Part shown: in pieces, positions 3,537-14,437 of the stretch
Layout: each line of letters begins with the position of its first letter
Position numbering within the stretch: the first letter of the stretch is position 1
Origin: Candidatus Nanosynbacter lyticus
GTDB lineage: Bacteria > Patescibacteriota > Saccharimonadia > Saccharimonadales > Saccharimonadaceae
Reading direction: 5' to 3'
NCBI RefSeq assembly: GCF_030253515.1
Contig: NZ_CP124549.1
Coordinates: 30,001-62,000 of the forward strand
DNA length: 32,000 nt
Made by a program: the position numbers and the translations under genes
Notes under the pieces: model-generated
Databases searched by the model: none
Told to the model about the DNA's origin: nothing
Seen by the model: the letters and a program-made list of their open reading frames with translations, nothing else

Positions 3537-5693
3537 ATGCGGCTACTATTGGTAACCAGAGGGATTCCCGGCTCTGGTAAGTCGACGTTTCTCGCGGAGC
3601 AGGGGCTTGATACCTATACGTTGTCGCCGGACGCGATACGGTTGATGCTGGCGTCGCCGCAGTTGACGCCTGATGGACAAACGACTATGCCGTCGCGTCA
3701 AGACGCAATGGTGTGGCGGCTTCTACACGAGATGCTGGAGCAGCGGATGACGCGGGGTGAGACGACGGTGGTTGATGCAACGCACACGACGCCAAATTAT
3801 TTCAAGACGTATGGCGAGCTGTGTCGGAAATATCGCTATCGGCTGGTGGTGATTGATTTTGCTGATGTGCCGCTGGCGGTGTGTCAAGAGCGTAATCGAG
3901 AGCGGCCGAGTCATAAGGTGGTGCCGAGTAGCGTCCTTGAGCGTATGCATCGGCGGCTGCAGCAGAGTTCACTGCCAAAATGGGTGACGGTGGTACGGAC
4001 GGCTGAGGAAGTGAATCAACTGCTTACTAATCAGCCAGAGAACGTTGATAGGTATCGGGCGGTTCATCACATCGGCGATGTGCAGGGGTGTTTTGCGCCG
4101 CTGAAGGAATATTTCGAGCGGCATCCGCTTCGGGATGATGAACTGTATATTTTTGTCGGCGACCTATTAGATCGCGGTGCGGAGAATGATGCGGTGATGC
4201 GATTTGTTTGTGACGAGTTACTTGACCGACCAAACGTGCGGTTTGTGGAGGGCAACCACGAGCTATATCTCTGGCAGTGGGCGACTGATCAGCCAGTTAC
4301 GGCGCGGGTATTTAGTGAGCAAACTCAGCCACAGCTGGAGGCGGCGGGCATCGATAAGCGCAAGGTAGCGCGGCTGCTGCGGCGGATGGATCAATATATT
4401 TTGTATCAGTTTCGAGGGCAAACAGTTTTGGTGACGCATGGTGGGCTCAGTACGCTGCCGGAGCAGTTACCATTGGTGGCGACCAGCCAGCTGGTCCATG
4501 GCGTGGGGGCGTATGATGAGGTTGGGGTGGTGGACGATGCATTTATGGCGCAGACTGATGACGCGACGTTTCAGATTCACGGACATCGCAACAGGCAAAA
4601 TTACCCCACGTGCTACAACGAACGTTGCTACAATTTGGAGGGAAGGGTTGAGTTTGGCGGCGAGCTGCGAACAGTGCGGCTGGACGAGAACGGCATGACG
4701 CCAATCACTATTCAAAACCAACGAGCAGCAGCGCGGCTATATCCAGAGCACGCGGCGTTCCTAAGCCAGCTACGGCAGAATCGCTACATTCGTGAGTCGA
4801 TCCTGCCGGGTGATATCAGCTCGTTTAATTTCAAGCCCGAGGCATTTTATCGCCAGGCATGGACGACGCAAACGATGCGGGCGCGCGGACTGTTTCTCAA
4901 TACGCTGACGAACGAGATTGTGATTCGGGCCTACGATAAGTTTTTTAACATTGGCGAGCGGCGCGATACTGAACTAGCGGCGCTGGAGCAGACGATGGTC
5001 TTTCCGGTGCGGGCGTGGGTGAAGGAGAATGGCTTTTTAGGATTGGTCGGGTATGATTCGGCGGCGGGCGGGCTGGTGATCGCATCAAAGTCGACGACCG
5101 AGGGTGACTATGCGGCGGCCTTTCGGCAAGAATTTTTGGAGCAATTTCGAGACAAACTGCCATACGTCACTGATTATCTGCGCAGTCATAATGCGTGCCT
5201 GTTGTTTGAGGTGGTGTTGCCGCGATTTGATCCGCATATTATCGCCTATGAGTCGGATCAGCTGGTGCTGCTCGATATCGTCAAGCGGCAGGTTGCATAC
5301 GGGGCGGTCGACCGGCAGGAGCGGGAGCGATTTGCGCGCGAGATCGGGACGAACAGCAAGCGTCTGGCGGCGGAGTTTTCATCATGGGCAGAGTTTATGA
5401 CGTGGTTTGGCCAGCTTCACGGCATGGCGTATCGGTGGCGGGGCGAGTGGATTGAGGGTTTTGTAATTGAAGATTCTGGTGGCCATCAGGTTAAGGTCAA
5501 GCTTGATTATTATACCTTTTGGCGGCAGATGCGGACGGCACTGGCGGCGCTGCAGGCTGGTCGGCAGCCATCAACGAGGCCCGACTGCCCTGACCCGGCG
5601 TTGGCAGCGCGGGTAATTGCATATATGCGGCAGTTGCCCGCCGAGGAATTAGCGCGGATGGACATTATCGCGCTGCGGCGACGGTTTGAGTAG
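3537..5693 (+). CDS. Three-domain polynucleotide kinase / metallophosphatase / ATP-dependent RNA-ligase-like protein (bacterial Pnkp-type RNA repair enzyme)
   Basis: Residues 1-165 form a P-loop kinase (GIPGSGKST). Residues ~175-360 form a calcineurin-like phosphoesterase (GDVQG, GDLLDRG, GNHE, VTHGG, HGH). Residues ~440-718 form a nucleotidyltransferase with VKENGF (KxNG motif I), EGFVIED (motif IV) and VKVKL (motif V). The start lies 3 nt after the murE stop. Confidence 0.7.
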   Translation: MRLLLVTRGIPGSGKSTFLAEQGLDTYTLSPDAIRLMLASPQLTPDGQTTMPSRQDAMVWRLLHEMLEQRMTRGETTVVDATHTTPNYFKTYGELCRKYRYRLVVIDFADVPLAVCQERNRERPSHKVVPSSVLERMHRRLQQSSLPKWVTVVRTAEEVNQLLTNQPENVDRYRAVHHIGDVQGCFAPLKEYFERHPLRDDELYIFVGDLLDRGAENDAVMRFVCDELLDRPNVRFVEGNHELYLWQWATDQPVTARVFSEQTQPQLEAAGIDKRKVARLLRRMDQYILYQFRGQTVLVTHGGLSTLPEQLPLVATSQLVHGVGAYDEVGVVDDAFMAQTDDATFQIHGHRNRQNYPTCYNERCYNLEGRVEFGGELRTVRLDENGMTPITIQNQRAAARLYPEHAAFLSQLRQNRYIRESILPGDISSFNFKPEAFYRQAWTTQTMRARGLFLNTLTNEIVIRAYDKFFNIGERRDTELAALEQTMVFPVRAWVKENGFLGLVGYDSAAGGLVIASKSTTEGDYAAAFRQEFLEQFRDKLPYVTDYLRSHNACLLFEVVLPRFDPHIIAYESDQLVLLDIVKRQVAYGAVDRQERERFAREIGTNSKRLAAEFSSWAEFMTWFGQLHGMAYRWRGEWIEGFVIEDSGGHQVKVKLDYYTFWRQMRTALAALQAGRQPSTRPDCPDPALAARVIAYMRQLPAEELARMDIIALRRRFE

Positions 5694-5709
5694 GCGAGAG
5701 GTTGGTTTC

Positions 5710-5738
5710 TTGTTCTACGCAGGGCGGTCTGGTACAAT
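5710..5738 (+). promoter_or_regulatory. Sigma-70-like promoter for the SGNH-hydrolase locus
   Basis: TTGTTC (5710-5715), a 17-nt spacer, then TACAAT (5733-5738). A GGAGGGGG Shine-Dalgarno sequence lies just before the ATG at 5769. Confidence 0.45.
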
Positions 5739-5768
5739 TTTGACATAAGCATAACGGAGGGGGCGCTT

Positions 5769-7295
5769 ATGTGGAAACTTATTATTAGTGTTATTGGGGC
5801 TACGTTAGCGGTGTGCATCGCGGTGCCGGCGACGGCTGGAGCGACTTCTGGGTATGATGATATCATCAACAAGGTTTCAACGAAAACATTGATCCATCAC
5901 ATCGATAATTATTCGGGTAAAACCTGCGGAAGTCCTGATGACGATTACGCGAAGAAGTGGCTGTTTGCCTTTAAGCAAAAGAGATATTATTCAGGTGACC
6001 CCAGAGACCACCAGGCGGCGGTAGAAAGTTTAGAACGCGCTATGTCGTCGCCAAAGGGTGCGTACGCGGTTGTTTATGAGCAGAATAATAAACATAACGA
6101 CACGTCAAACCCATCGTTCATAAAAGTTTTTTGGACAGAGGACGGTAAGGATGATTATACGTATCGTTTTTATAAAAATCATCAAATAAGCGGGATTTAT
6201 CTTACGAGGAAGGAGGGTAGTCAGTCGAAACTTTATGTGGCTACCGTTGCCAGCCCTAAGTTGATTTTAGGAGGTGGTAATGGTAGTAATTGTGACCCTG
6301 AATACTTGTGGGGATATAAACATTCGCAGGCTTTTGTATCTGATCTGAATATATCTGTAGGATCAAATAAAAAACTCTTCACGTCTACGTTTTCTGTTGA
6401 CTATCCGAGCGGCTATGCAGGCCCCAAGTTTCCGGACAATCGCTCAGCGATCGGATGGTGGCCAGACTCGTCTCAATATGATGATTTTACAGACAAAATA
6501 ACAGTAAAAAAATTAATAAATTACATAAATTATCACAAGAAATTTTGTGCACCATCAGACTATTCTAACAGTTGGTTTACAGCGTTTAAGTATCCCAATA
6601 TTCCTGACAATCATAAGTATCATAAAAGTTATATGGCAAGTCTTGAACGGGCGATGGCGACGGGAGCGTATGCTGTTGCTTATGAACAAACGACGGTTAA
6701 TGGTAAAACAGTAAACCCCTATTTCATAACGGTATTTTGGTCAGAAAATAGCAATGACTTTCATATTAAGTTTTACGGTGATGCTCCGTACAGAGTTGCT
6801 ACCATTACACATAAGTGGGGCAGCAGTGCAAAGTTGTACGGTATGATCGCAGGTAGCACTGGACCGCTCTGGGGACGTGGCGGTTGTGAAGTTGAGTTTT
6901 TGCAGGGAAATTATCTAAATGGCTATATACCTACTGCTCGGTTTAACGAGTCGTATATACCGTTGAGCGGTGGCAATAATATGAAAATCTTCACCTCAAC
7001 CTTTGACGTCGAATATCCAGACGGCTATAAGGGTAAGCCGATTCCTGGCGATCGACGCAATATCAAGTATCTCGCCCTTGGCGACTCCTTCTCCAGCGGC
7101 GAGGGTGATACTGACAAAAATCCGGCGACTGACCGAAAGTATTATCGCCAGTGGACGGATGTGAAAGAAGATAAGGCGAAGGGTGCACCGAAGGAAAAGT
7201 GTCATATCAGTACGCGTTCGTATCCGTACAAGCTGGCGAATTGGATGGGGCTGGGTAAGCGGCCCGTCGGCGGCGTGGGCGTCGGTTGCGTGTAG
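5769..7295 (+). CDS. Secreted protein with signal peptide, two tandem ~195-aa unknown domains and the start of an SGNH/GDSL hydrolase domain (N-terminal part of a frameshifted gene)
   Basis: N-terminal signal peptide is MWKLIISVIGATLAVCIAVPATAGA. Internal repeats cover aa 29-225 and aa 237-430. GDSL block I (LALGDSFSSGEG, GDS at 7080-7088) is present, and the frame ends 70 codons later. Confidence 0.7.
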   Translation: MWKLIISVIGATLAVCIAVPATAGATSGYDDIINKVSTKTLIHHIDNYSGKTCGSPDDDYAKKWLFAFKQKRYYSGDPRDHQAAVESLERAMSSPKGAYAVVYEQNNKHNDTSNPSFIKVFWTEDGKDDYTYRFYKNHQISGIYLTRKEGSQSKLYVATVASPKLILGGGNGSNCDPEYLWGYKHSQAFVSDLNISVGSNKKLFTSTFSVDYPSGYAGPKFPDNRSAIGWWPDSSQYDDFTDKITVKKLINYINYHKKFCAPSDYSNSWFTAFKYPNIPDNHKYHKSYMASLERAMATGAYAVAYEQTTVNGKTVNPYFITVFWSENSNDFHIKFYGDAPYRVATITHKWGSSAKLYGMIAGSTGPLWGRGGCEVEFLQGNYLNGYIPTARFNESYIPLSGGNNMKIFTSTFDVEYPDGYKGKPIPGDRRNIKYLALGDSFSSGEGDTDKNPATDRKYYRQWTDVKEDKAKGAPKEKCHISTRSYPYKLANWMGLGKRPVGGVGVGCV

Positions 7296-8982
7296 TGGGG
7301 CGACGGTGTATGACATGAATTGGGACAACTCGGGTGGCTATGAAGGGCAGGACAGCCCGCTCGGGCGGCTGCATGGTTATGACAACAAAGGAGTGTTGCA
7401 GAAGATGGCGCTCAACGAGATGATCCCGGGGCGCGTCAAGCAAATCGAGTTCGTAAAGAAATACCAACCAAAGGTGATCACGCTGACGGCGGGCGGGAAT
7501 GATGTGGGGTTTGGAAATAAATTAAAAGCATGCGTGCCCTTCCCTAGTACCTGCGTGTATGCAAAAACTGAAGAGCGACGAAAGCTAAAGAACGAAATTC
7601 TTGATCAATTTGAGCGATTAAAGTCATTCTATGAGGAACTTAAAGCCGCAACGGACAACAAAGCAAAAATATATGTACTTGGCTATCCGCAATTTATAAA
7701 TGGAGCTCCTGATGCTCCGTGTGGAGGCAGGGGCCTTCTTTATCTTGACGCCAGAGAGCGCGAGATGATAACAAATTCAGTTTCTTATCTTAATGGTGTG
7801 ATCCGCCAAGCCTCCAAAGCGGCTGGGGTAAAATACATAGATGTAGAAAATGCCTTTGGCAATCATTGGCTATGTGGCGATAAACCTACTCACGTTAACC
7901 CGTTGCTGTTGGTTGAGGAGGTTGCTAGTAGGCAACCAGACTTCCACCTCCCTCCCGTTGAGCGTCAAGAAAGCTTTCATCCAAACGCTAAAGGTCACGC
8001 CGATATTGCTCGTGCTTTTAAGAAAGAATTAGGCGGTGTTAATCCTGTGGATTATAAAATCTGTAAAAATGACGCGACGACTTGTCCTGACAACTCTGCG
8101 ACAAGGGATAATATACCAACACCTCCTTATTTTAACGTTACTAATGAGCAGGAAGACATAAAGTTTACTTATTATAAACTATCCAATGGGACAGCGACAA
8201 AAGTTCAAGAAAAGCACATAGAGATCAAAACATCCAGGCGCCCGTATAAGCCATGGAAAAAGGTATACGTAAAGATTTACTCTGAGCCAAGAGATTTGGG
8301 CGAGATTGAGGCTGATGAGAATGGTGAAATTAATGGATCTGTGGCACTGCCTGAGGATTTGCCCGCTGGATATCACACGCTGGTGGTGTCTGGTGAAGCA
8401 CCAGATGGCAAGAAGCAAGAGCTATACCAAACCATTCTCGTCAAAGGTCCAAACCCCGAGGATATCGACGAAAATGATACGCCAGACAAACTCCAACCCT
8501 GCGGGGCTTTCGCTCAAGCCGCTAATAAAGACGAAGACCTTGACGGCATCGACGACGCCTGCGACCCTGAGATCACCGACCCCATCCTCTACACTGCTCG
8601 CAACGGCAAGTCGTTGCTTGGCGAAGATGAGGATCGGATTTATCTCTTTCGCAATACGCGAGCAGCTAACTTGACTGGTATCACGAACGATTACGTTGAC
8701 AAGTCAAAAAACCAGAATAACGCTGATGCGCTGGTCGGACATACTTTAAGCGAAGAGACACGCGGACTTGCATTCGATAAACTGGTCGTTATGAAAGAAG
8801 CTGACGGTGACATAAAAAAAGGAACGCCGATTATCCTCGCCAAAGACGTAAACGAAAAATGCTACGCCCTAAAACCAGAGGATTACCTATCACCAGCACT
8901 AAAGCCCGGATCAAAAAAGTATAAGCTACGAGGATTAACAAAACTAAATACACTACCGAAGGGGGTTGGTTGTGAAGAATAA
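7183..8982 (+). CDS. SGNH/GDSL hydrolase blocks II-V plus Ig-like and Ca-binding C-terminal regions (C-terminal part of the frameshifted gene)
   Basis: Contains ACSGATVYD (block II), TLTAGGNDVGF (block III) and ESFHPNAKGH (block V, catalytic His). A DxDxDGxxDxxD thrombospondin-type-3-like motif lies at 8530-8565. This frame is +1 relative to 5769..7295. The real coding part probably begins near 7257; the first in-frame ATG is at 7315. Confidence 0.7.
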   Translation: MHRRKSVISVRVRIRTSWRIGWGWVSGPSAAWASVACSGATVYDMNWDNSGGYEGQDSPLGRLHGYDNKGVLQKMALNEMIPGRVKQIEFVKKYQPKVITLTAGGNDVGFGNKLKACVPFPSTCVYAKTEERRKLKNEILDQFERLKSFYEELKAATDNKAKIYVLGYPQFINGAPDAPCGGRGLLYLDAREREMITNSVSYLNGVIRQASKAAGVKYIDVENAFGNHWLCGDKPTHVNPLLLVEEVASRQPDFHLPPVERQESFHPNAKGHADIARAFKKELGGVNPVDYKICKNDATTCPDNSATRDNIPTPPYFNVTNEQEDIKFTYYKLSNGTATKVQEKHIEIKTSRRPYKPWKKVYVKIYSEPRDLGEIEADENGEINGSVALPEDLPAGYHTLVVSGEAPDGKKQELYQTILVKGPNPEDIDENDTPDKLQPCGAFAQAANKDEDLDGIDDACDPEITDPILYTARNGKSLLGEDEDRIYLFRNTRAANLTGITNDYVDKSKNQNNADALVGHTLSEETRGLAFDKLVVMKEADGDIKKGTPIILAKDVNEKCYALKPEDYLSPALKPGSKKYKLRGLTKLNTLPKGVGCEE

Positions 8983-8988
8983 GAAGGT
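8862..8988 (+). repeat. Direct repeat copy 1 (3' end of the hydrolase gene plus start of small gene A1)
   Basis: Near-identical to 10345..10471. I saw 3 mismatches over about 127 nt, all synonymous in the hydrolase frame. Confidence 0.85.
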
Positions 8989-9265
8989 AATCAAGTGCTC
9001 AACTGTACTATATACAGGCGTAGTGTCGGTCTTGGGAATATGTCAGTTCCTGGGTGTGCCAAACCTTGATATGATCTCAATACAAGATAGGGTAATGCTA
9101 GGTGCAATTATATGGTGGCTCGGCATATTTGGTGTTGCTATGAATGCAGTTATTATAATGAAAATTCAGGAATTAAGAGCGCTGGCCACTATTTTATTAC
9201 TATTATGTGCTGCATCTGGTTTAATCGGTGGTTTTCATTACTATTTGGCGACTACCTGGGCTTGA
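8972..9265 (+). CDS. Small 3-TM membrane protein, family A (A1)
   Basis: The GTG start sits 6 nt after GAAGGGGG and overlaps the hydrolase stop (TGTGAAGAATAA). The protein begins MKNKKVIK and has three hydrophobic segments, a GVPNLD motif and GGFHYYLA. The ORF track starts it at 8966. Confidence 0.6.
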   Translation: MKNKKVIKCSTVLYTGVVSVLGICQFLGVPNLDMISIQDRVMLGAIIWWLGIFGVAMNAVIIMKIQELRALATILLLLCAASGLIGGFHYYLATTWA

Positions 9266-9315
9266 GGTTAACTTGTGAAGTATAACATAATTAACACAAA
9301 AATAAGGGGTGAATT

Positions 9316-9600
9316 GTGAAGAATAAGAAAATAATTGTGGGATTATCAATTATTGTCCCAATGTTAATATTGTTGCTAGAATACTACATAATCGGTCCGC
9401 TATTGGCCGATGGTATCAGTATATTTGTTGCACAATGCTCGTTGCTAGCTTTGAGTGCTATATTTATGATAGCGGGCATTGTCATTTTAGTGAGAGCTTC
9501 TGGGGGTTATAAATTTTGTTGTGTGCCCAGTATCGTCGCCAGCTTATTACTCGTTTTTGGATATTTTTTGTCCGAGGCTGTAAAAGAGATACGGTTCTAG
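9316..9600 (+). CDS. Small 3-TM membrane protein, family B (B1)
   Basis: GTG start preceded by AAGGGG. The protein begins MKNKKIIV and has three hydrophobic segments and the motif R-x3-YKF-C-C. Confidence 0.55.
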   Translation: MKNKKIIVGLSIIVPMLILLLEYYIIGPLLADGISIFVAQCSLLALSAIFMIAGIVILVRASGGYKFCCVPSIVASLLLVFGYFLSEAVKEIRF

Positions 9601-9643
9601 TGAGCTTGGAAAGTAAAATGTGTTATGTTCAACAAGGTGGGCT

Positions 9644-9949
9644 GTGAAGAAAAATAAGATTGTAAAATACGCCACGATAACTTATACATGTCTATTGGCG
9701 GTAATGGCATTTTGCCTATTCGCGGGAATACCGAATCTAGACATGAATCCGAGGCAAGTTAACTCACTGTTAGGGATCATTCTTGTGTGGGCAAGTGTGA
9801 TCGGTATAGCTATAAACCTGCTCACGGTAATTTTTATAAAAAGTCTACGCTCCATTGCCGTAGTGCTGCTCATCGTATGCACATTTGCACTGGCAGAAGG
9901 ATGTTTTCATTATTTTTGGTTTTCACAGCCATTCGCAGGGGGACGGTGA
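9644..9949 (+). CDS. Small 3-TM membrane protein, family A (A2)
   Basis: The GTG at 9644 gives MKKNKIVKY, analogous to A1. GIPNLDM and CFHYF motifs are shared with A1. The ORF track starts it at 9620. Confidence 0.55.
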   Translation: MKKNKIVKYATITYTCLLAVMAFCLFAGIPNLDMNPRQVNSLLGIILVWASVIGIAINLLTVIFIKSLRSIAVVLLIVCTFALAEGCFHYFWFSQPFAGGR

Positions 9950-9972
9950 AGTAGCGCATGGCTAATCATCAT

Positions 9973-10029
9973 ATGAAGATTAATAAAACTAAACAAGCTA
10001 CCGAAGGGGGTGGTTGTGAAAAAGAATAA
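9973..10029 (+). repeat. Degenerate remnant of the hydrolase 3' terminus in front of B2
   Basis: It reads MKINKTKQATEGGGCEKE*, compared with the hydrolase C-terminus LTKLNTLPKGVGCEE*. The nucleotide string aaaactaaacaagctaccgaagggggtggttgtgaa resembles aaaactaaatacactaccgaagggggttggttgtgaa at 8940-8977. Confidence 0.55.
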
Positions 10030-10309
10030 ACAAACGTGTCAAAACGTAATCACTATAATTATAGGGATAATTCCCATCCCTACGCTCGTAATCCATCAGA
10101 TAATAGCTGAAAAATTCATATTTCCATATTACTCCGAAGCTCATTTCAATTATCTACTTATAGGAATTGGAGCGTTTGTTATTGGGGGATCTATCCTAGT
10201 TTGTTGTCGAGGCAGGATAAAATTATGGTGTATTCCTGGGATGCTTGTTGGGGTTATTGCGGTATTAGCTTACATCATAGCTATTGGGCTGAGGGAATTT
10301 CAGTTCTAA
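10016..10309 (+). CDS. Small 3-TM membrane protein, family B (B2)
   Basis: The GTG start lies inside the TGTGAA junction, 5 nt after GAAGGGGG. The protein begins MKKNKQT and has the motif CRGRIKLWC, like B1 and B3. The ORF track starts it at 10010. Confidence 0.55.
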   Translation: MKKNKQTCQNVITIIIGIIPIPTLVIHQIIAEKFIFPYYSEAHFNYLLIGIGAFVIGGSILVCCRGRIKLWCIPGMLVGVIAVLAYIIAIGLREFQF

Positions 10310-10344
10310 GCCGGGGTTAACGATACTGAAGTTATCGTAGGCTA

Positions 10345-10471
10345 CTACGCCCTAAAACCAGAAGATTACCTATCGCCAGCACTAAAACCCGGATCAAAAA
10401 AGTATAAGCTACGAGGATTAACAAAACTAAATACACTACCGAAGGGGGTTGGTTGTGAAGAATAAGAAGGT
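10345..10471 (+). repeat. Direct repeat copy 2: orphan hydrolase 3' end (last 39 codons plus stop) fused to the start of A3
   Basis: It encodes YALKPEDYLSPALKPGSKKYKLRGLTKLNTLPKGVGCEE*, identical in amino acids to the hydrolase C-terminus. No start codon or upstream hydrolase body is present. Confidence 0.85.
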
Positions 10472-10754
10472 TATAAAGCACTCAATCATGCTGTATACTG
10501 GTATACTGTCGGTTTTAGGATTGTGCCAGTTTCTCGGCATACCAAACCTTGATACAGCTTCAAGACACGACAGGATGTTGCTGGGAGCGACTATATAGTG
10601 GTTGGGTGTGGCCGGGGTTATTATAAATGTGATTATTGCAATAAGGCTTAGAACATTGAGGACCTTGGCTATTGTCCTGCTAATGTTGTGTATCGTGTTT
10701 GGCTTGGTCGGTGGTTTTCATTATTATCTAGCAGTTAACTGGAAATGGGGTTAA
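10455..10754 (+). pseudogene. Family A small membrane protein paralog (A3) with an in-frame TAG
   Basis: It translates as MKNKKVIKHSIMLYTGILSVLGLCQFLGIPNLD...GATI*WLGVAG...GGFHYYLAVNWKWG*. The TAG at 10596-10598 sits where A1 has a TGG (Trp) codon. Confidence 0.7.
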
Positions 10755-10887
10755 TCCGTGAAGAATAGTCAATAGGTACGTCAAAGCGCCAAGGATACAA
10801 ACGGGGGTCCATTACCATTTGATGGCTCATTGCTCATAGCAATAGGTTGATTAACTAACGCAGCCGATTTATCATGAGGGGTAGGTT

Positions 10888-11187
10888 ATGAAAGATGATG
10901 TAGCGACGACGGACAAGCCATACTTAAGCGATACGATAGTAATCTTGCTAGTGGTCGCACCGATAGCTTTGTGCGTGCTGCTCTTTGTCGTGGCGAGGTG
11001 GGATACGTGGTGGATTCGTGAATATCATGTTACTGAGATAGCAGCAATGGCGCTGCCGATGCTATTGTCGGCGGCGGGAGTGTGGATGGTAGTGTGGCTG
11101 AGGGGTGTATATAAACTCTGTGCGTTTAGTAGCCTTGCGGTAGCGGCATTGTTCTGGCTGGCGTTTCTTTATAAATTATCGCAATGA
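10888..11187 (+). CDS. Small membrane protein, family B-like (B3)
   Basis: ATG start after GAGGGGTAGG. It has three hydrophobic segments and LRGVYKLC, which matches the family B motif. It is GC-richer than the other array members. Confidence 0.5.
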   Translation: MKDDVATTDKPYLSDTIVILLVVAPIALCVLLFVVARWDTWWIREYHVTEIAAMALPMLLSAAGVWMVVWLRGVYKLCAFSSLAVAALFWLAFLYKLSQ

Positions 11188-11703
11188 TTTTTTACGACTT
11201 TCGCGGTACTTGGTGCGGCGATTAATAGTCATAAGAATTGTTCCGCAGATGAAAAGTGGCGGCGCGCAGAATAGATATATAAACTCTCCCAGCCCATCAG
11301 CCAGAAAGCAGTTACCTATGGAAAATCCGCTACCGCAGCGTCCAGGAATGCCCCACCCGCCGATCGTCATGTCGAGGAGCAGTATCAGTATTGCGAGGTA
11401 AAACAGGATGCCTGTTATAACAAGCGGCCATCGATTGCGCAGGTTCTGACAGCGGGCGGTGATTGACCGGTCCGTTATCTCTATCATCAGCAAGGTGATA
11501 AGCATGGCCACAATGAACCACATTGAGTCGTGCAGATAGTAATCATAATAATAGTCGGGCGGACCAAATTGGTCAGAGTTGAGCTTGTGTAGGTGGTCAT
11601 TATGGGCAGTTGCAAGCACAAAAACGAGGATCGTCAGGCCGTAAATAAGCCAACGCACGATGCGGGTGGCAATTGATTTTTTTGATGGAGCATTTTCAGT
11701 CAT
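11176..11703 (-). CDS. Multi-pass membrane protein, unknown function
   Basis: A 175-aa ORF with about 4 hydrophobic segments. Its ATG overlaps the murF stop (TGATG), so the two are translationally coupled. Its 3' end overlaps B3 convergently by 12 nt. Confidence 0.5.
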   Translation of the reverse strand: MTENAPSKKSIATRIVRWLIYGLTILVFVLATAHNDHLHKLNSDQFGPPDYYYDYYLHDSMWFIVAMLITLLMIEITDRSITARCQNLRNRWPLVITGILFYLAILILLLDMTIGGWGIPGRCGSGFSIGNCFLADGLGEFIYLFCAPPLFICGTILMTINRRTKYRESRKKSLR

Positions 11704-12989
11704 CAATGGTCGCTTTCAAAAAACTGCCGTTTCTTTTCGAGCCACGCGTCTGATTGGCGGACGAGCTTTTGGCGATCGGCGGGGTTTTTGAGGAGTGGCT
11801 TGATGGCTTCCTCGAGGTAGATGCCACCCTGGGAACCTTTGAATAGGAAGGTGGTGTCTTTATTGGCTAGGCGAGCGAGGAACTCAGTGGCATCGGTGGC
11901 TTTAGTAAACGAAGTGACGGTGCAACCGTTTTGGCGGGCGGCTGGAGCGAGGAATCGCTCGGCCAGGTGGCCAACGGTGATGACGTGGTCAAGCTGTTTT
12001 GGGTCACACAGCGCGCCGATGGCAGCGTGTTCGTCGGCTGCGGTCTCGCCCAGCTCGTTCATGTCGCCAAGGACGGCGATTTTGGTTTTGGCGGGTAGCC
12101 GGTAAAGCGTCGTCAGGGCGGATTTTACAGCGAGGGGACTGGAATTATACGAATCGTCGATGATGGTTGCACCGTTGATACCGGGCAAGATATTCATGCG
12201 GCCGCTGACTGGCGTGAAATTCTCGAGCATGGTCATCACACATTCAATGTCAAGTCCAAGCTCTAACGCCACTGCCGCTGCGCCGCCGGCAACGCGGAGT
12301 TGATGCACGCCGACAACAGGAATGATGAATGGACGTGAGGTTTGGTCAGCGTGGATGAGCTGGCACTGAAAGCCCTTGCCGCTAGTAAATTTACCGATAG
12401 CCATCTGGTAGTCGGCGCCCGGCTCGGTGCCGTAGGAAATGATTTGGCCGCAATCGGCGAAATCCACGAACTCGGGGCGAATGTCGTCGCGGTTGTAGAT
12501 CACTTTTTCGCTATATTCAGCGAGGGCAAATTCCTCGCGGGCAACAGTTTCTAATGAGCCGAAAAACTCCATGTGCTCGGGTGCGATGGCGGTGACGATG
12601 GTGACGTCAGGGCGAATATAGCGGCCGAACGCGGTCATTTCGCCGGGGTGATCAATGCCAAACTCTTGGACGACAACATCAATGTCATGCTGGCGGCGGG
12701 CGGCCTGGCGGGCTCGGCCCAAGACCGACAACCAATTCCATACCGAGCGGGGGTTCTGCGGTGAATCGACACCGAGAATTTCCAGCGGCGCGCTAAACTC
12801 GGCGTTGAAGTTGCCGCGGTTGGTGCGGACTTTATAACTGGAGTTTAGGACGCTGACGAGAGTTGATTTGGTAGTGGTTTTGCCGACGCTGCCGACGACG
12901 GCAACGAGCTTGATGTGCGGATTATGCAGGAAGAACGCGGTGACAGAGCGGGCGAGAATGCGCGAGATGAGGGTTTTGAAGAGTCTCAT
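11703..12989 (-). CDS. murF: UDP-MurNAc-tripeptide:D-Ala-D-Ala ligase (MurF-type Mur ligase)
   Basis: Contains the VVGSVGKTTTKS P-loop, IDDSYNSSP and GDMNELG motifs. I prefer the ATG at 12989 (MRLFKT...), which has TGCTATACT 6 nt upstream. The ORF track extends the frame to 13067. Confidence 0.8.
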   Translation of the reverse strand: MRLFKTLISRILARSVTAFFLHNPHIKLVAVVGSVGKTTTKSTLVSVLNSSYKVRTNRGNFNAEFSAPLEILGVDSPQNPRSVWNWLSVLGRARQAARRQHDIDVVVQEFGIDHPGEMTAFGRYIRPDVTIVTAIAPEHMEFFGSLETVAREEFALAEYSEKVIYNRDDIRPEFVDFADCGQIISYGTEPGADYQMAIGKFTSGKGFQCQLIHADQTSRPFIIPVVGVHQLRVAGGAAAVALELGLDIECVMTMLENFTPVSGRMNILPGINGATIIDDSYNSSPLAVKSALTTLYRLPAKTKIAVLGDMNELGETAADEHAAIGALCDPKQLDHVITVGHLAERFLAPAARQNGCTVTSFTKATDATEFLARLANKDTTFLFKGSQGGIYLEEAIKPLLKNPADRQKLVRQSDAWLEKKRQFFESDH

Positions 12990-13053
12990 GAGTATAGTAT
13001 AGCATCTTTTGAATATGGGTAGTGAATCAGGAACTTGATTTTTTATCAAGTTT

Positions 13054-13332
13054 ATGCTAATATTCACTACAGTTATGCTTAATCATGAACGGACATCAGC
13101 ACGAAGGTTAGCACCACCTCGTTGGGGCAGGGTGGATGACATATTATATGCTGTCACAAAAACACCAGAATACCAAAAAACAATCAATGAGGTGAAGTCT
13201 CAAAGAGCTGAGCGACAGCCAGCACAAGAGAGTAATACCGAAGAGTGGGGTGCACGACTTATCGAAAGCTTGCCTAGTGTGCTGCGCGGAAAAGCGGTCA
13301 CTCTTCTGGCTGCACAAGCCGTGTCGGAGTGA
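13054..13332 (+). CDS. Hypothetical protein; possibly the N-terminal part of a gene interrupted by TGA
   Basis: A 92-aa ORF in an AT-richer segment. Its TGA (13330-13332) is followed immediately, in the same frame, by the next ORF. Confidence 0.35.
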   Translation: MLIFTTVMLNHERTSARRLAPPRWGRVDDILYAVTKTPEYQKTINEVKSQRAERQPAQESNTEEWGARLIESLPSVLRGKAVTLLAAQAVSE

Positions 13333-13989
13333 GTGGGGCGAACCCATAAATATGAGAGCGACCAAACTCGTCAATTAGCGCTTATGGCAGCGATACCAAA
13401 TTGGCTGTTAGCGAAGCGACAGCTTGACAAACATGGCAAAACAATGGAACGCCCTGAGAAAAAGAAATTACTTGGTCCAATAATAGCATTTAACCATGCC
13501 CTTCGTAAGATAATCGACGCGGAACAATGTTCAGGGATGCAGCAGTTGATTAATTTTGTTAATGACATTGTTTTAATGATGAGTGAGAGCGAGGAGGTCG
13601 CTCGGTATGCAGAAAATGCAGCACAAATAACCCTCGTTGGTATGAGACAGGAAATTGCGGCAGAGAGCGTGCTAAGTTCAATGCAGGAAGTGCATGGCAT
13701 CAGGGGTGCAAACGACGAGGAAGAACTGGACGGTATAGATATTGTCGTGAATTATAACGGTATTGAGGTTGGGATTGATATTAAATCAAGCCAAACTGCC
13801 GCTGATAAAGCAAATAGAGTCGCTAGAGAACATAGAGATACTAAGTACATGGCAGTGTGGTCTGGGTTTACCGGTTGTGATTTTGGTAGCAATCTCATTT
13901 TGGAGGATTGGCAGCTTAGAAATCAACAAGGCTATTATCGCTCCGTTATGGATGTAGTGATTCAGCAAGTTGGACATAATGTTGCATGA
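13333..13989 (+). CDS. Hypothetical protein with a possible PD-(D/E)xK nuclease-like motif
   Basis: A 218-aa ORF. The pattern E(x)nLDGIDIVV-x9-VGIDIKSS resembles the D...(D/E)xK core of the restriction-endonuclease fold. The GTG start has only a weak Shine-Dalgarno sequence, and the first in-frame ATG is at 13384. Confidence 0.4.
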   Translation: MGRTHKYESDQTRQLALMAAIPNWLLAKRQLDKHGKTMERPEKKKLLGPIIAFNHALRKIIDAEQCSGMQQLINFVNDIVLMMSESEEVARYAENAAQITLVGMRQEIAAESVLSSMQEVHGIRGANDEEELDGIDIVVNYNGIEVGIDIKSSQTAADKANRVAREHRDTKYMAVWSGFTGCDFGSNLILEDWQLRNQQGYYRSVMDVVIQQVGHNVA

Positions 13990-14017
13990 TATATCAGAAT
14001 AGTTTATAATACTAAAG

Positions 14018-14437
14018 ATGCCTATACGTTCATATGATATTATCACCCCTGACGATTTAAACTCGGAAGCATTTCTGAGACAACAATATATAGAAGCGCT
14101 CAAGCGTAGCACTGAGATACCTGGCAAGGTAGGCGCGGTTGCACTTCGGTTGGTTGTGACTCCTAATTCTGATGGTAATGAGTTGGCGACACGGCGACAC
14201 AAACAGAACGGTAGTGCTGAGACAATTATGCTAAATGCAACCATGGTGCTTGATGCAACGGGTTTTGATGAGTCCTCTATTCGAGCGACTGGAAATGTTA
14301 CGGTTGGGACAGAGAAAGCAGTTTGTGGCCCGGGGAGGCTTGAAAAAGATAAGAATGATCAATTAAAACTGCATGTTAATGAAAAGCTGGCGAATCCGGA
14401 GGAACCAGGTGAGGCGGCTATGAAGTTCAATTTCTAG
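14018..14437 (+). CDS. Hypothetical protein
   Basis: A 139-aa ORF with no motif I recognise. Its stop codon lies inside the CIRCE left arm. Confidence 0.4.
   Translation: MPIRSYDIITPDDLNSEAFLRQQYIEALKRSTEIPGKVGAVALRLVVTPNSDGNELATRRHKQNGSAETIMLNATMVLDATGFDESSIRATGNVTVGTEKAVCGPGRLEKDKNDQLKLHVNEKLANPEEPGEAAMKFNF

Follow-up and report, generated by a model that had tools for sequence, protein, structure and literature searches.

Gene conversion from silent cassettes is familiar from Neisseria pilE/pilS and Borrelia vlsE, and tandem arrays of immunity genes adjoin lipase effectors of the type VI (T6SS; Tle/Tli) and type VII (T7SS; TslA/TilA) secretion systems, where the known immunity proteins are paralogues of one family and usually lipoproteins or periplasmic. 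In the orphan toxin-immunity modules of Rhs/CdiA loci, promoterless 3' fragments recombine with the main gene (Koskiniemi et al. 2014, PMC3967940). Here, a locus of Candidatus Nanosynbacter lyticus is compared with these systems. It lies in a 32,000-nucleotide (nt) stretch of contig NZ_CP124549.1 (positions 30,001 to 62,000; hereafter the window, whose own numbering is used throughout, on the plus strand unless stated). A gene for a secreted SGNH/GDSL (phospho)lipase-like enzyme of this oral Saccharibacterium (TM7), the hydrolase (Hyd), is followed by an array of small membrane-protein genes, Hyd-A1-B1-A2-B2-(orphan)-A3psi-B3, in which the orphan is a copy of the last hydrolase codons and A3psi a pseudogene. 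About 90 related loci (L numbers) were collected by looking up exact proteins, scanning species-representative genomes and searching metagenomes for the junction pattern. The best explanation of the data as a whole, and one held with good though not complete confidence, is that such orphans are remnants of hydrolase tails, that cassettes are exchanged between them by homologous recombination, and that the window orphan has recently converted the end of the main gene.

Ungapped comparison at an offset of 1483 found 124 of 127 bases identical between the end of the hydrolase gene (8862-8988) and the orphan (10345-10471). The mismatches at 8880 (G/A), 8892 (A/G) and 8904 (G/A) are all at third codon positions and synonymous in the hydrolase frame, a pattern that, taken alone, is of weak significance (3/3, p about 0.02-0.06), and the final 84 nt (8905-8988) are 100% identical. 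Both borders are abrupt: the preceding 127 nt are only 29.9% identical, the following 127 nt 69.3% and the whole A1/A3 body 63.9%. The contrast between repeat tail and A body is pronounced (Fisher p = 6e-16), and the 127-nt repeat is far above chance level. The main copy comprises the last 39 hydrolase codons, the Shine-Dalgarno (SD) sequence AAGGGGG, which is also read as the codons for LPKG, and the start of A1, an overlapping GTG. The orphan ('tail39') comprises a copy of those 39 codons, the SD and the GTG start of A3 at 10455, and its translation is YALKPEDYLSPALKPGSKKYKLRGLTKLNTLPKGVGCEE followed by a stop. The preliminary description of this DNA had reported a near-exact repeat with three synonymous substitutions, an orphan that encodes the hydrolase tail plus the overlapping GTG of an A-family gene, and a sharp identity boundary; the alignment upholds all of these, with no gradual decay at either border. 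No ATG, GTG or TTG occurs in the orphan frame (10346-10465), which lies in frame behind the B2 stop codon, and the orphan is therefore untranslatable on its own. Read-through of the B2 stop was considered and rejected: it would be in frame in the window, but the spacer of L008 and L018 is two bases longer and the frame relation is not conserved.

The main tail of the window together with A1 is base-for-base the same as in its three closest relatives, L007, L060 and L085, which are independent contigs with the same A1, except at nine sites within 8916-8951. At all nine, the window main tail equals its own orphan. L007, L060, L085 and L008 agree at six of the nine (8919, 8922, 8939, 8944, 8948 and, except in L060, 8951), and their state is therefore taken as the older main-gene state. 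The most economical reading of these comparisons is a recent short conversion from the silent orphan into the main gene, with a minimal tract of 8916-8951 (36 nt) and a maximal tract of 8905-8988 (84 nt); recent copying of such a tract would explain both the near-identity and the sharp borders of the repeat. The tract changes five residues of the hydrolase tail, SNGYKLRGLIKLSK to SKKYKLRGLTKLNT, and among 84 loci the allele TCAAAAAAGTATAAG is found only in the two window copies. The three synonymous variants just 5' of the tract also occur in the main hydrolase of L001 and are allelic variants of two tail lineages whose evolution took place in expressed genes. As in pilE/pilS and vlsE, an untranslatable partial copy would have given a short tract to a full-length gene and altered its protein. 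Unlike those systems, the non-reciprocal transfer from a promoterless copy is here a single inferred event (8916-8951, from comparison with L007, L060, L085, L008 and L081) that affects a short C-terminal tail and not a known antigenic region, and neither high frequency nor a dedicated initiation mechanism has support at this locus. In L017, a whole C-terminal (CT) domain is duplicated around an F2 gene (11120-11617 and 12019-12516, 99.8% identical over 498 nt), which is a second and larger case of within-genome homogenisation.

The orphan is old and appears to be an insertion scar inherited with B2, not a new duplication, because the B2-spacer-orphan junction, with the same orphan 5' end at CT residue 140, is common to at least 13 contigs from several species. 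The spacer (10310-10344, from B2 stop to orphan) is conserved with this junction in L008 and L018, and the aligned junction is the same in all three. Over its full length the window orphan belongs to a separate tail lineage from the main copy; it is most closely related to the L081 orphan, from which it differs at 2 of 110 nt, and the segment of orphan plus A3 (10345-10767) is 94% identical to the expressed hydrolase tail and first gene of L008/L009. An open frame is kept in nine distinct B2-linked orphan tails (L018, L057, L059, L064, L068, L072, L075, L079 and the window), where the ratio of non-synonymous to synonymous changes (pN/pS) is 0.33-0.41, compared with 0.19-0.25 in expressed tails. 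This mild relaxation fits repeated exchange with expressed copies better than free decay. The preliminary description had attributed the repeat to recent unequal recombination or gene conversion centred on the junction, not to one old duplication. Gene conversion is borne out by the nine-site patch, which equals the orphan and has no counterpart in L007, L060 or L085, and the identity is indeed not the residue of one old duplication, as A1 and A3 are old paralogues that each have a near-identical counterpart in other strains; recent unequal recombination as the source of the orphan is contradicted by the widely shared B2 junction.

Orphans are common across the loci. Their 5' ends cluster at discrete CT residues: residue 5 (18 orphans, with F2a upstream of 20 of the 21 that start there or earlier), residue 100 (11, behind F2b, F2d or F2f), residue 140 (13, with B2 upstream of 12 of the 19 that start there or later) and residue 147 (3, behind F3b). 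The hydrolase 3' remnants between cassettes likewise have discrete lengths of about 30, 60, 127, 240 and 400-570 nt. What comes after an orphan differs between loci: downstream of the B2-linked orphan, most loci have F3, L075 has F22, L057 has F2, L018 has B1 and the window alone has A3psi. How such scars arise may be seen in L006 (3100-3760), an apparent unresolved insertion intermediate in which a cassette of ..LPKGVSCE, a stop and F2b interrupts the main hydrolase near CT residue 99, and the displaced remainder (82 aa, amino acids) follows as an orphan that resumes at ETRGLAF.

Every collected locus has a small membrane-protein gene whose GTG overlaps the hydrolase stop codon, followed by an array, and gene order varies even among close relatives. 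L007, whose hydrolase is 97% identical, has Hyd-A1-B1-A2-F3-B3, and L008, L059, L070, L072 and L082 have Hyd-A3-B1-A2-B2-(orphan)-F3-...-B3. Shorter arrays are Hyd-F3-B3 in L012 and Hyd-F3-F22-A3-B3 in L080, and other loci contain F2 or F22 genes and long orphan CT domains. In many strains A3 directly follows the hydrolase, and the first position switches between A1 and A3 in otherwise collinear arrays. The small proteins (about 95-120 aa, each with 3-4 hydrophobic segments) fall into at least four groups unrelated by hhalign, namely A, B1/B2/B3, F2/F22 and F3, and their genes are considered real because pN/pS is 0.13-0.53. The locus is among the most rearranged in closely related oral strains, despite a housekeeping neighbourhood of Mur ligases and GroES/EL. 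Many metagenome contigs end in or just past the array (L001, L002, L005, L018, L060), consistent with tail repeats breaking short-read assemblies, and the locus is probably under-represented in metagenome-assembled genomes (MAGs). Orphan tails and overlapping small-gene starts are also present at 11600-12550 of L024, a reactor Saccharibacteria MAG whose hydrolase is only 43% identical, and the architecture is therefore older than the oral lineages.

Exchange at the junctions is visible between strains. The orphan tail of L018 and the main tail of L001 share 99.2% identity, as do the orphans of L006 and L023, and the A2-tail60-F3 junction of L007 reads as the roughly 60-nt remnant (tail60) joined to the end of tail39, consistent with a B2 cassette having been lost or gained between two directly repeated tails. 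The proposal that recombination between tails amounts to a cassette swap is accordingly supported in part: swapping at junctions is abundant across strains and the B2 cassette is present or absent, but the predicted product, Hyd-A3-B3, was not found in the roughly 90 loci, the nearest being the A3-B3 adjacency in L080.

A mechanism can be proposed in which remnants of discrete length would be scars where a cassette once entered the hydrolase 3' end, with L006 as the state before resolution, and in which each scar type would travel with its upstream gene, the 39-codon scar with B2. Every cassette opens with the same junction, SD-GTGAAGAAtAAG, the long form of which is the hydrolase tail, and these homologous junctions would act as portable recombination sites. 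Homologous recombination, within the genome or with DNA from related strains, would then insert, delete and swap cassettes and also swap hydrolase C-terminal domains, and occasional illegitimate insertions would create new scars. General homologous recombination is favoured because the window encodes no recombinase, breakpoints lie inside homologous sequence, and Saccharibacteria are naturally competent, a property used to engineer these bacteria (PMC10633639).

Several observations weigh against this explanation. The CT domain and the small proteins have no assigned function, with Pfam, NCBIfam, PADLOC and Foldseek all empty, and behind the commonest CT type stand genes of five different families, which argues against simple cognate pairing. 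The direction of the conversion is taken by parsimony from three relatives and outgroups and not from a formal test. No instance of the deletion product Hyd-A3-B3 was found in the collection, and in this genome that swap would join a frameshifted hydrolase to the A3 pseudogene; with a frameshift in one and a stop codon in the other, the locus may in this strain be decaying rather than operating. Finally, the evidence consists of assembled contigs and not reads, and exchange is seen between strains and not within one population.

The Rhs/CdiA modules are the closest precedent for the tail remnants. As in those loci, a large gene for a secreted product is followed by homologous 3' fragments without start or export signals, recombination between main gene and orphan alters the expressed product, and arrays vary between strains. 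The CT domain varies between conserved flanks in the Rhs/CdiA manner, with a core of type W (at least 85% identity), mid (60-84%) or short (below 60% and ~45 aa shorter) between a shared DIDENG..ITDPILYTARNG leader and a shared tail, and orphans of 32-200 aa without initiation or export signals are found in most related loci. The differences are as marked. What main gene and orphan share here is the extreme 3' end with the coupling junction, and not a motif lying upstream of the variable tip of a toxin; the cargo that varies is chiefly the small membrane-protein gene downstream, and CT type does not set which gene comes next; and no toxin fold or delivery system was detected in a Saccharibacterium protein that has a Sec-type signal only.

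These differences bear on the rival that survives best, a classical polymorphic toxin locus in which CT would be an interbacterial toxin, the small membrane proteins its cognate immunity proteins and the orphans displaced pairs. The parallel with PMC3967940 speaks for it, as do full-length orphan copies of a CT core of at least three types, the missing start and export signals of the orphans, the evidence of recombination between main gene and orphan, and the F2 family that comes next in 16 of 18 main copies with a mid-type CT. Pairing fails for type W, where the next gene is F3 in 11 loci, A in 9, F2 in 4, F22 in 3 and B2 in 1, and the A, F3, B and F2/F22 groups to which these followers belong are unrelated by hhalign; the immediate 3' neighbour thus does not co-vary with CT type as a cognate immunity gene of Rhs/CdiA loci would. 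The 39-codon orphans carry no variable toxin part, the CT domain has no known toxin fold or family, and the constant enzymatic domain, not the tip, is the lipase. No T5SS (type V secretion system), T6SS, T7SS, PAAR, LXG or VENN domain was found in the hydrolase or in window open reading frames (ORFs) of at least 150 aa, and the only export feature of the hydrolase is a signal-peptide-like N-terminus. A toxin locus of this kind is regarded as improbable.

Two further explanations are each given very little weight. The tails could be kept alike not by recombination but by purifying selection on a nucleotide element, for example a leader RNA, regulatory structure or coupling signal. A 30-nt junction (GGGG..GTGAAGAAtAAG) does precede A1, B1, A2, B2 and A3, its SD-GTGAAGAA core is kept at all five gene starts of the window and in nearly all tails elsewhere, and the stop/start overlap persists even in L024. 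Against such an element, main and orphan tails are just 68-85% identical within other genomes (L017 excepted), and the nine changes of the patch relative to its orthologues, five of which alter the protein, are the opposite of conservation. A structured RNA was rejected: the 127 nt have no stable fold, both tail copies folding less stably than shuffled sequences (z-scores +0.9 and +1.4), and an Rfam scan of 5500-11800 at E up to 1 gave two chance-level matches only. Alternatively, the assembly might be a chimera of two strain variants, Hyd-A1-B1-A2-B2-(orphan)-... and Hyd-tail-A3-B3, stitched through the shared tail. The order B2-orphan-A3 is seen only in the window, and in relatives, contig breaks often fall within or beside the array (L001, L002, L005, L018). 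The three mismatches and the conserved B2-spacer left junction nevertheless mark the orphan as a true B2-linked copy, the perfectly repeated stretch is just 84 nt, A3-B3 adjacency is found independently in L080, and the source contig is 824 kb.

The remaining two explanations can be dismissed almost entirely. A single recent tandem duplication of the tail and an A gene, with the A copies diverging fast under positive selection and the tail unchanged, would account for a direct repeat in which each copy has a homologous A gene downstream, but A1 and A3 are just 64% identical, A1 is 100% identical in L007, L060 and L085 and A3 97-98% in L008 and L080, the B2-orphan junction is common to several species and the main tail is a mosaic relative to its closest relatives. 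An integron-like site-specific system would match the short, promoterless single-gene cassettes in one orientation behind a fixed gene, but profile scans found no integrase, transposase or other recombinase encoded in the 32-kb window, there are no inverted repeats at cassette ends, where integrons have attC-type imperfect ones and an integrase nearby, junction lengths vary and breakpoints lie within homologous sequence; an integron or mobile element was rejected for want of a recombinase.

Compared with the Tle/Tli and TslA/TilA loci, the present locus likewise places several small envelope-associated genes, in strain-variable number, behind a lipase-type enzyme. It differs in that the small proteins belong to at least four unrelated polytopic families and there is no secretion-system context, and an immunity role would be putative. 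Assignment of the enzyme to the SGNH/GDSL hydrolases rests on two Pfam profiles above cut-off, PF13472 (46.1 bits, cut-off 32.9) and PF00657 (30.6 bits, cut-off 23.6), and on the catalytic motifs of blocks I, III and V: GDS in LALGDSFSSGEGD, GGND in LTAGGNDVGF and HPN in ESFHPNAKGH. In a PDB sequence search, the best matches of the catalytic domain were Streptomyces phospholipase A1 4hyq (E = 1.6e-22) and lipase 5mal (E = 8e-19), which share the GDS, GGND and HPN motifs. Unlike these single-domain proteins of about 235 aa, the hydrolase is about 1070 aa when intact, as in the unbroken orthologues of L007 and L008, and has in addition two N-terminal repeats, an immunoglobulin (Ig)-like domain, a Ca-binding-type linker and a novel C-terminal domain. 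Its homologues are named Saccharibacteria proteins, and the related contigs come from human oral metagenomes and complete oral TM7 genomes.

In the window, a 1-nt insertion splits the gene. The 5' reading frame in the ORF list (5769-7295) contains the signal-peptide-like N-terminus, two ~230-aa internal repeats and SGNH block I, and ends early at a frameshift at 7257-7258, where the alignment has AA in the window and a single A in L007 and L008 (GGGTAAGCGG vs GGGTAGCGG). The 3' reading frame (7291-8982) contains the other SGNH blocks, the Ig-like domain, a thrombospondin-3-like DxDxDG linker and the CT domain (178 aa, 8446-8982), a beta-rich core between the conserved leader DIDEN..ITDPILYTARNG and the conserved tail. 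The insertion puts the GDS block and the rest of the enzyme into different frames, and is either a true inactivation or an error of sequencing. The N-terminal repeats (5769-7000; ..SLERAM..AYAV.YEQ..F..VFW.E..) had no match in Pfam, in NCBIfam or among PDB sequences, and no Pfam or NCBIfam family covers the CT domain. A confident AlphaFold2 (AF2) model of CT was beta-rich (pLDDT, predicted local distance difference test, 86; pTM, predicted TM-score, 0.78), with no Foldseek match in the PDB at E < 0.5. The hydrolase is itself mosaic across strains: L065 is 99% identical in the N-terminal half and 45% in the catalytic half, and L060 shows the reverse, 55% and 99%. G+C content (GC) within the gene peaks at 0.55 in 7001-7500, with flanks at 0.40-0.45.

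The hydrolase stop codon overlaps the start of the first small gene. The AAGGGGG SD of each downstream gene doubles as the LPKG codons, and the terminal CEE and stop are the out-of-frame reading of GTGAAGAATAA, so translational coupling dictates how the enzyme reads over its final 8-10 residues. The reactor MAG, though distant, has this overlap too, which points to what may be an ancient functional tie of the enzyme to the first of its small partners.

Within the array, A1 (8972-9265), a small protein of the A family with three transmembrane (TM) segments, has a start that overlaps the hydrolase stop and is 100% identical in L007, L060 and L085; a homologue search with it returned five clusters, all oral metagenome or NCBI fragments, and the A family is narrow. 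B1 (9316-9600, 3-TM) has a junction copy at 9306-9335 ahead of it and is related to B2 and B3 with hhalign probabilities of 89% and 74%. A2 (9644-9949, A family, 3-TM, pN/pS 0.44) follows a junction copy at 9634-9663. It is succeeded by tail60 (9972-10029), a ~60-nt hydrolase-tail remnant with SD and the GTG start of B2 that is 83-85% identical to 8926-8986 and is also found after A2 in L007, L008, L009 and L014, and then by B2 itself (10016-10309, 3-TM, pN/pS 0.43). The A3 pseudogene (10455-10754, A family) has an in-frame TAG at 10596-10598 in place of the TGG of A1 and of the A3 copies of L008/L009, and its body is 97-98% identical to intact A3 genes of L008, L009, L064, L068 and L080. With this nonsense codon and the hydrolase frameshift, the locus looks partly decayed in this genome. 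The A3 cassette ends at a vestigial gene start, GGGGTTAATCCGTGAAGAATAG (10747-10768), which is kept after F3 in L007 and L008; a conserved junction therefore delimits cassettes at either end. B3 (10888-11187, small TM protein, pN/pS 0.13) has its own ATG and no tail junction and forms the conserved right end of the array. A single promoter-like site lies ahead of it; in the promoter and terminator scan, terminator-like sites were at background and promoter-like sites numbered 20 against 12.9 in shuffles, none of them informative.

To the right, the array is flanked by a conserved 176-aa 4-TM protein on the minus strand (11176-11706) together with a Mur ligase gene (11703-13067). Neither this flank protein nor any of the small proteins has a family at meaningful E-values in Pfam, NCBIfam or PADLOC. 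The remaining window genes are housekeeping genes (Mur ligases, GroES/EL, TsaD, ribonucleotide reductase, CTP synthase and arginyl-tRNA synthetase, ArgRS). Between the Mur ligase gene and groES (13054-14437) is a second strain-variable island, which in the window and L014 holds a 311-aa gene (weak MjaI restriction-endonuclease match) and a 139-aa gene, in L007, L009 and L011 two different genes, and in L008, L010 and L012 none. The 311-aa ORF (13054-13989) has a nonsense TGA at 13330-13332 where L014 has an Arg codon, and the hydrolase, A3 and this ORF are three disrupted accessory genes within 7 kb. Directly upstream of the hydrolase, a 718-aa protein (3537-5693) has three domains, P-loop kinase (AAA_33), calcineurin-like phosphoesterase and T4-type RNA ligase, an architecture that is Pnkp-like and associated with RNA repair.

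Saccharibacteria are obligate epibionts with tiny genomes, and the basis of strain differences in their host range and competitiveness is largely unknown. In the locus described here, a conserved secreted enzyme of phospholipase-like type is coupled to membrane proteins that form an exchangeable set, and the locus illustrates how very short portable junctions could let homologous recombination operate a gene-cassette system with no dedicated recombinase, which fits natural competence (PMC10633639). Recombination of orphan modules or silent cassettes is already known; the phylum and the cargo are without a prior description, as full-text literature searches on hypervariable, lipase or polymorphic toxin loci of Saccharibacteria found none of this locus. 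The 'orphan module' logic of Rhs and CDI (contact-dependent growth inhibition) loci is thereby extended to a different phylum and a different cargo, and the locus is a concrete, genetically tractable candidate for strain-level variation. It is tentatively suggested that the hydrolase, once secreted, acts as a (phospho)lipase on a cell envelope, with the coupled membrane proteins as protective or partner proteins under diversifying selection. More speculative still is the idea that the tail repeats are working parts of a Saccharibacteria-specific diversity system driven by recombination. If so, a portable enzyme tail and coupling junction would let unrelated membrane-protein genes be placed after a lipase-like secreted enzyme, variation from silent tails and CT domains would pass back into the expressed enzyme, and the strain-specific combinations would set self-protection, competition or host compatibility of these epibionts.

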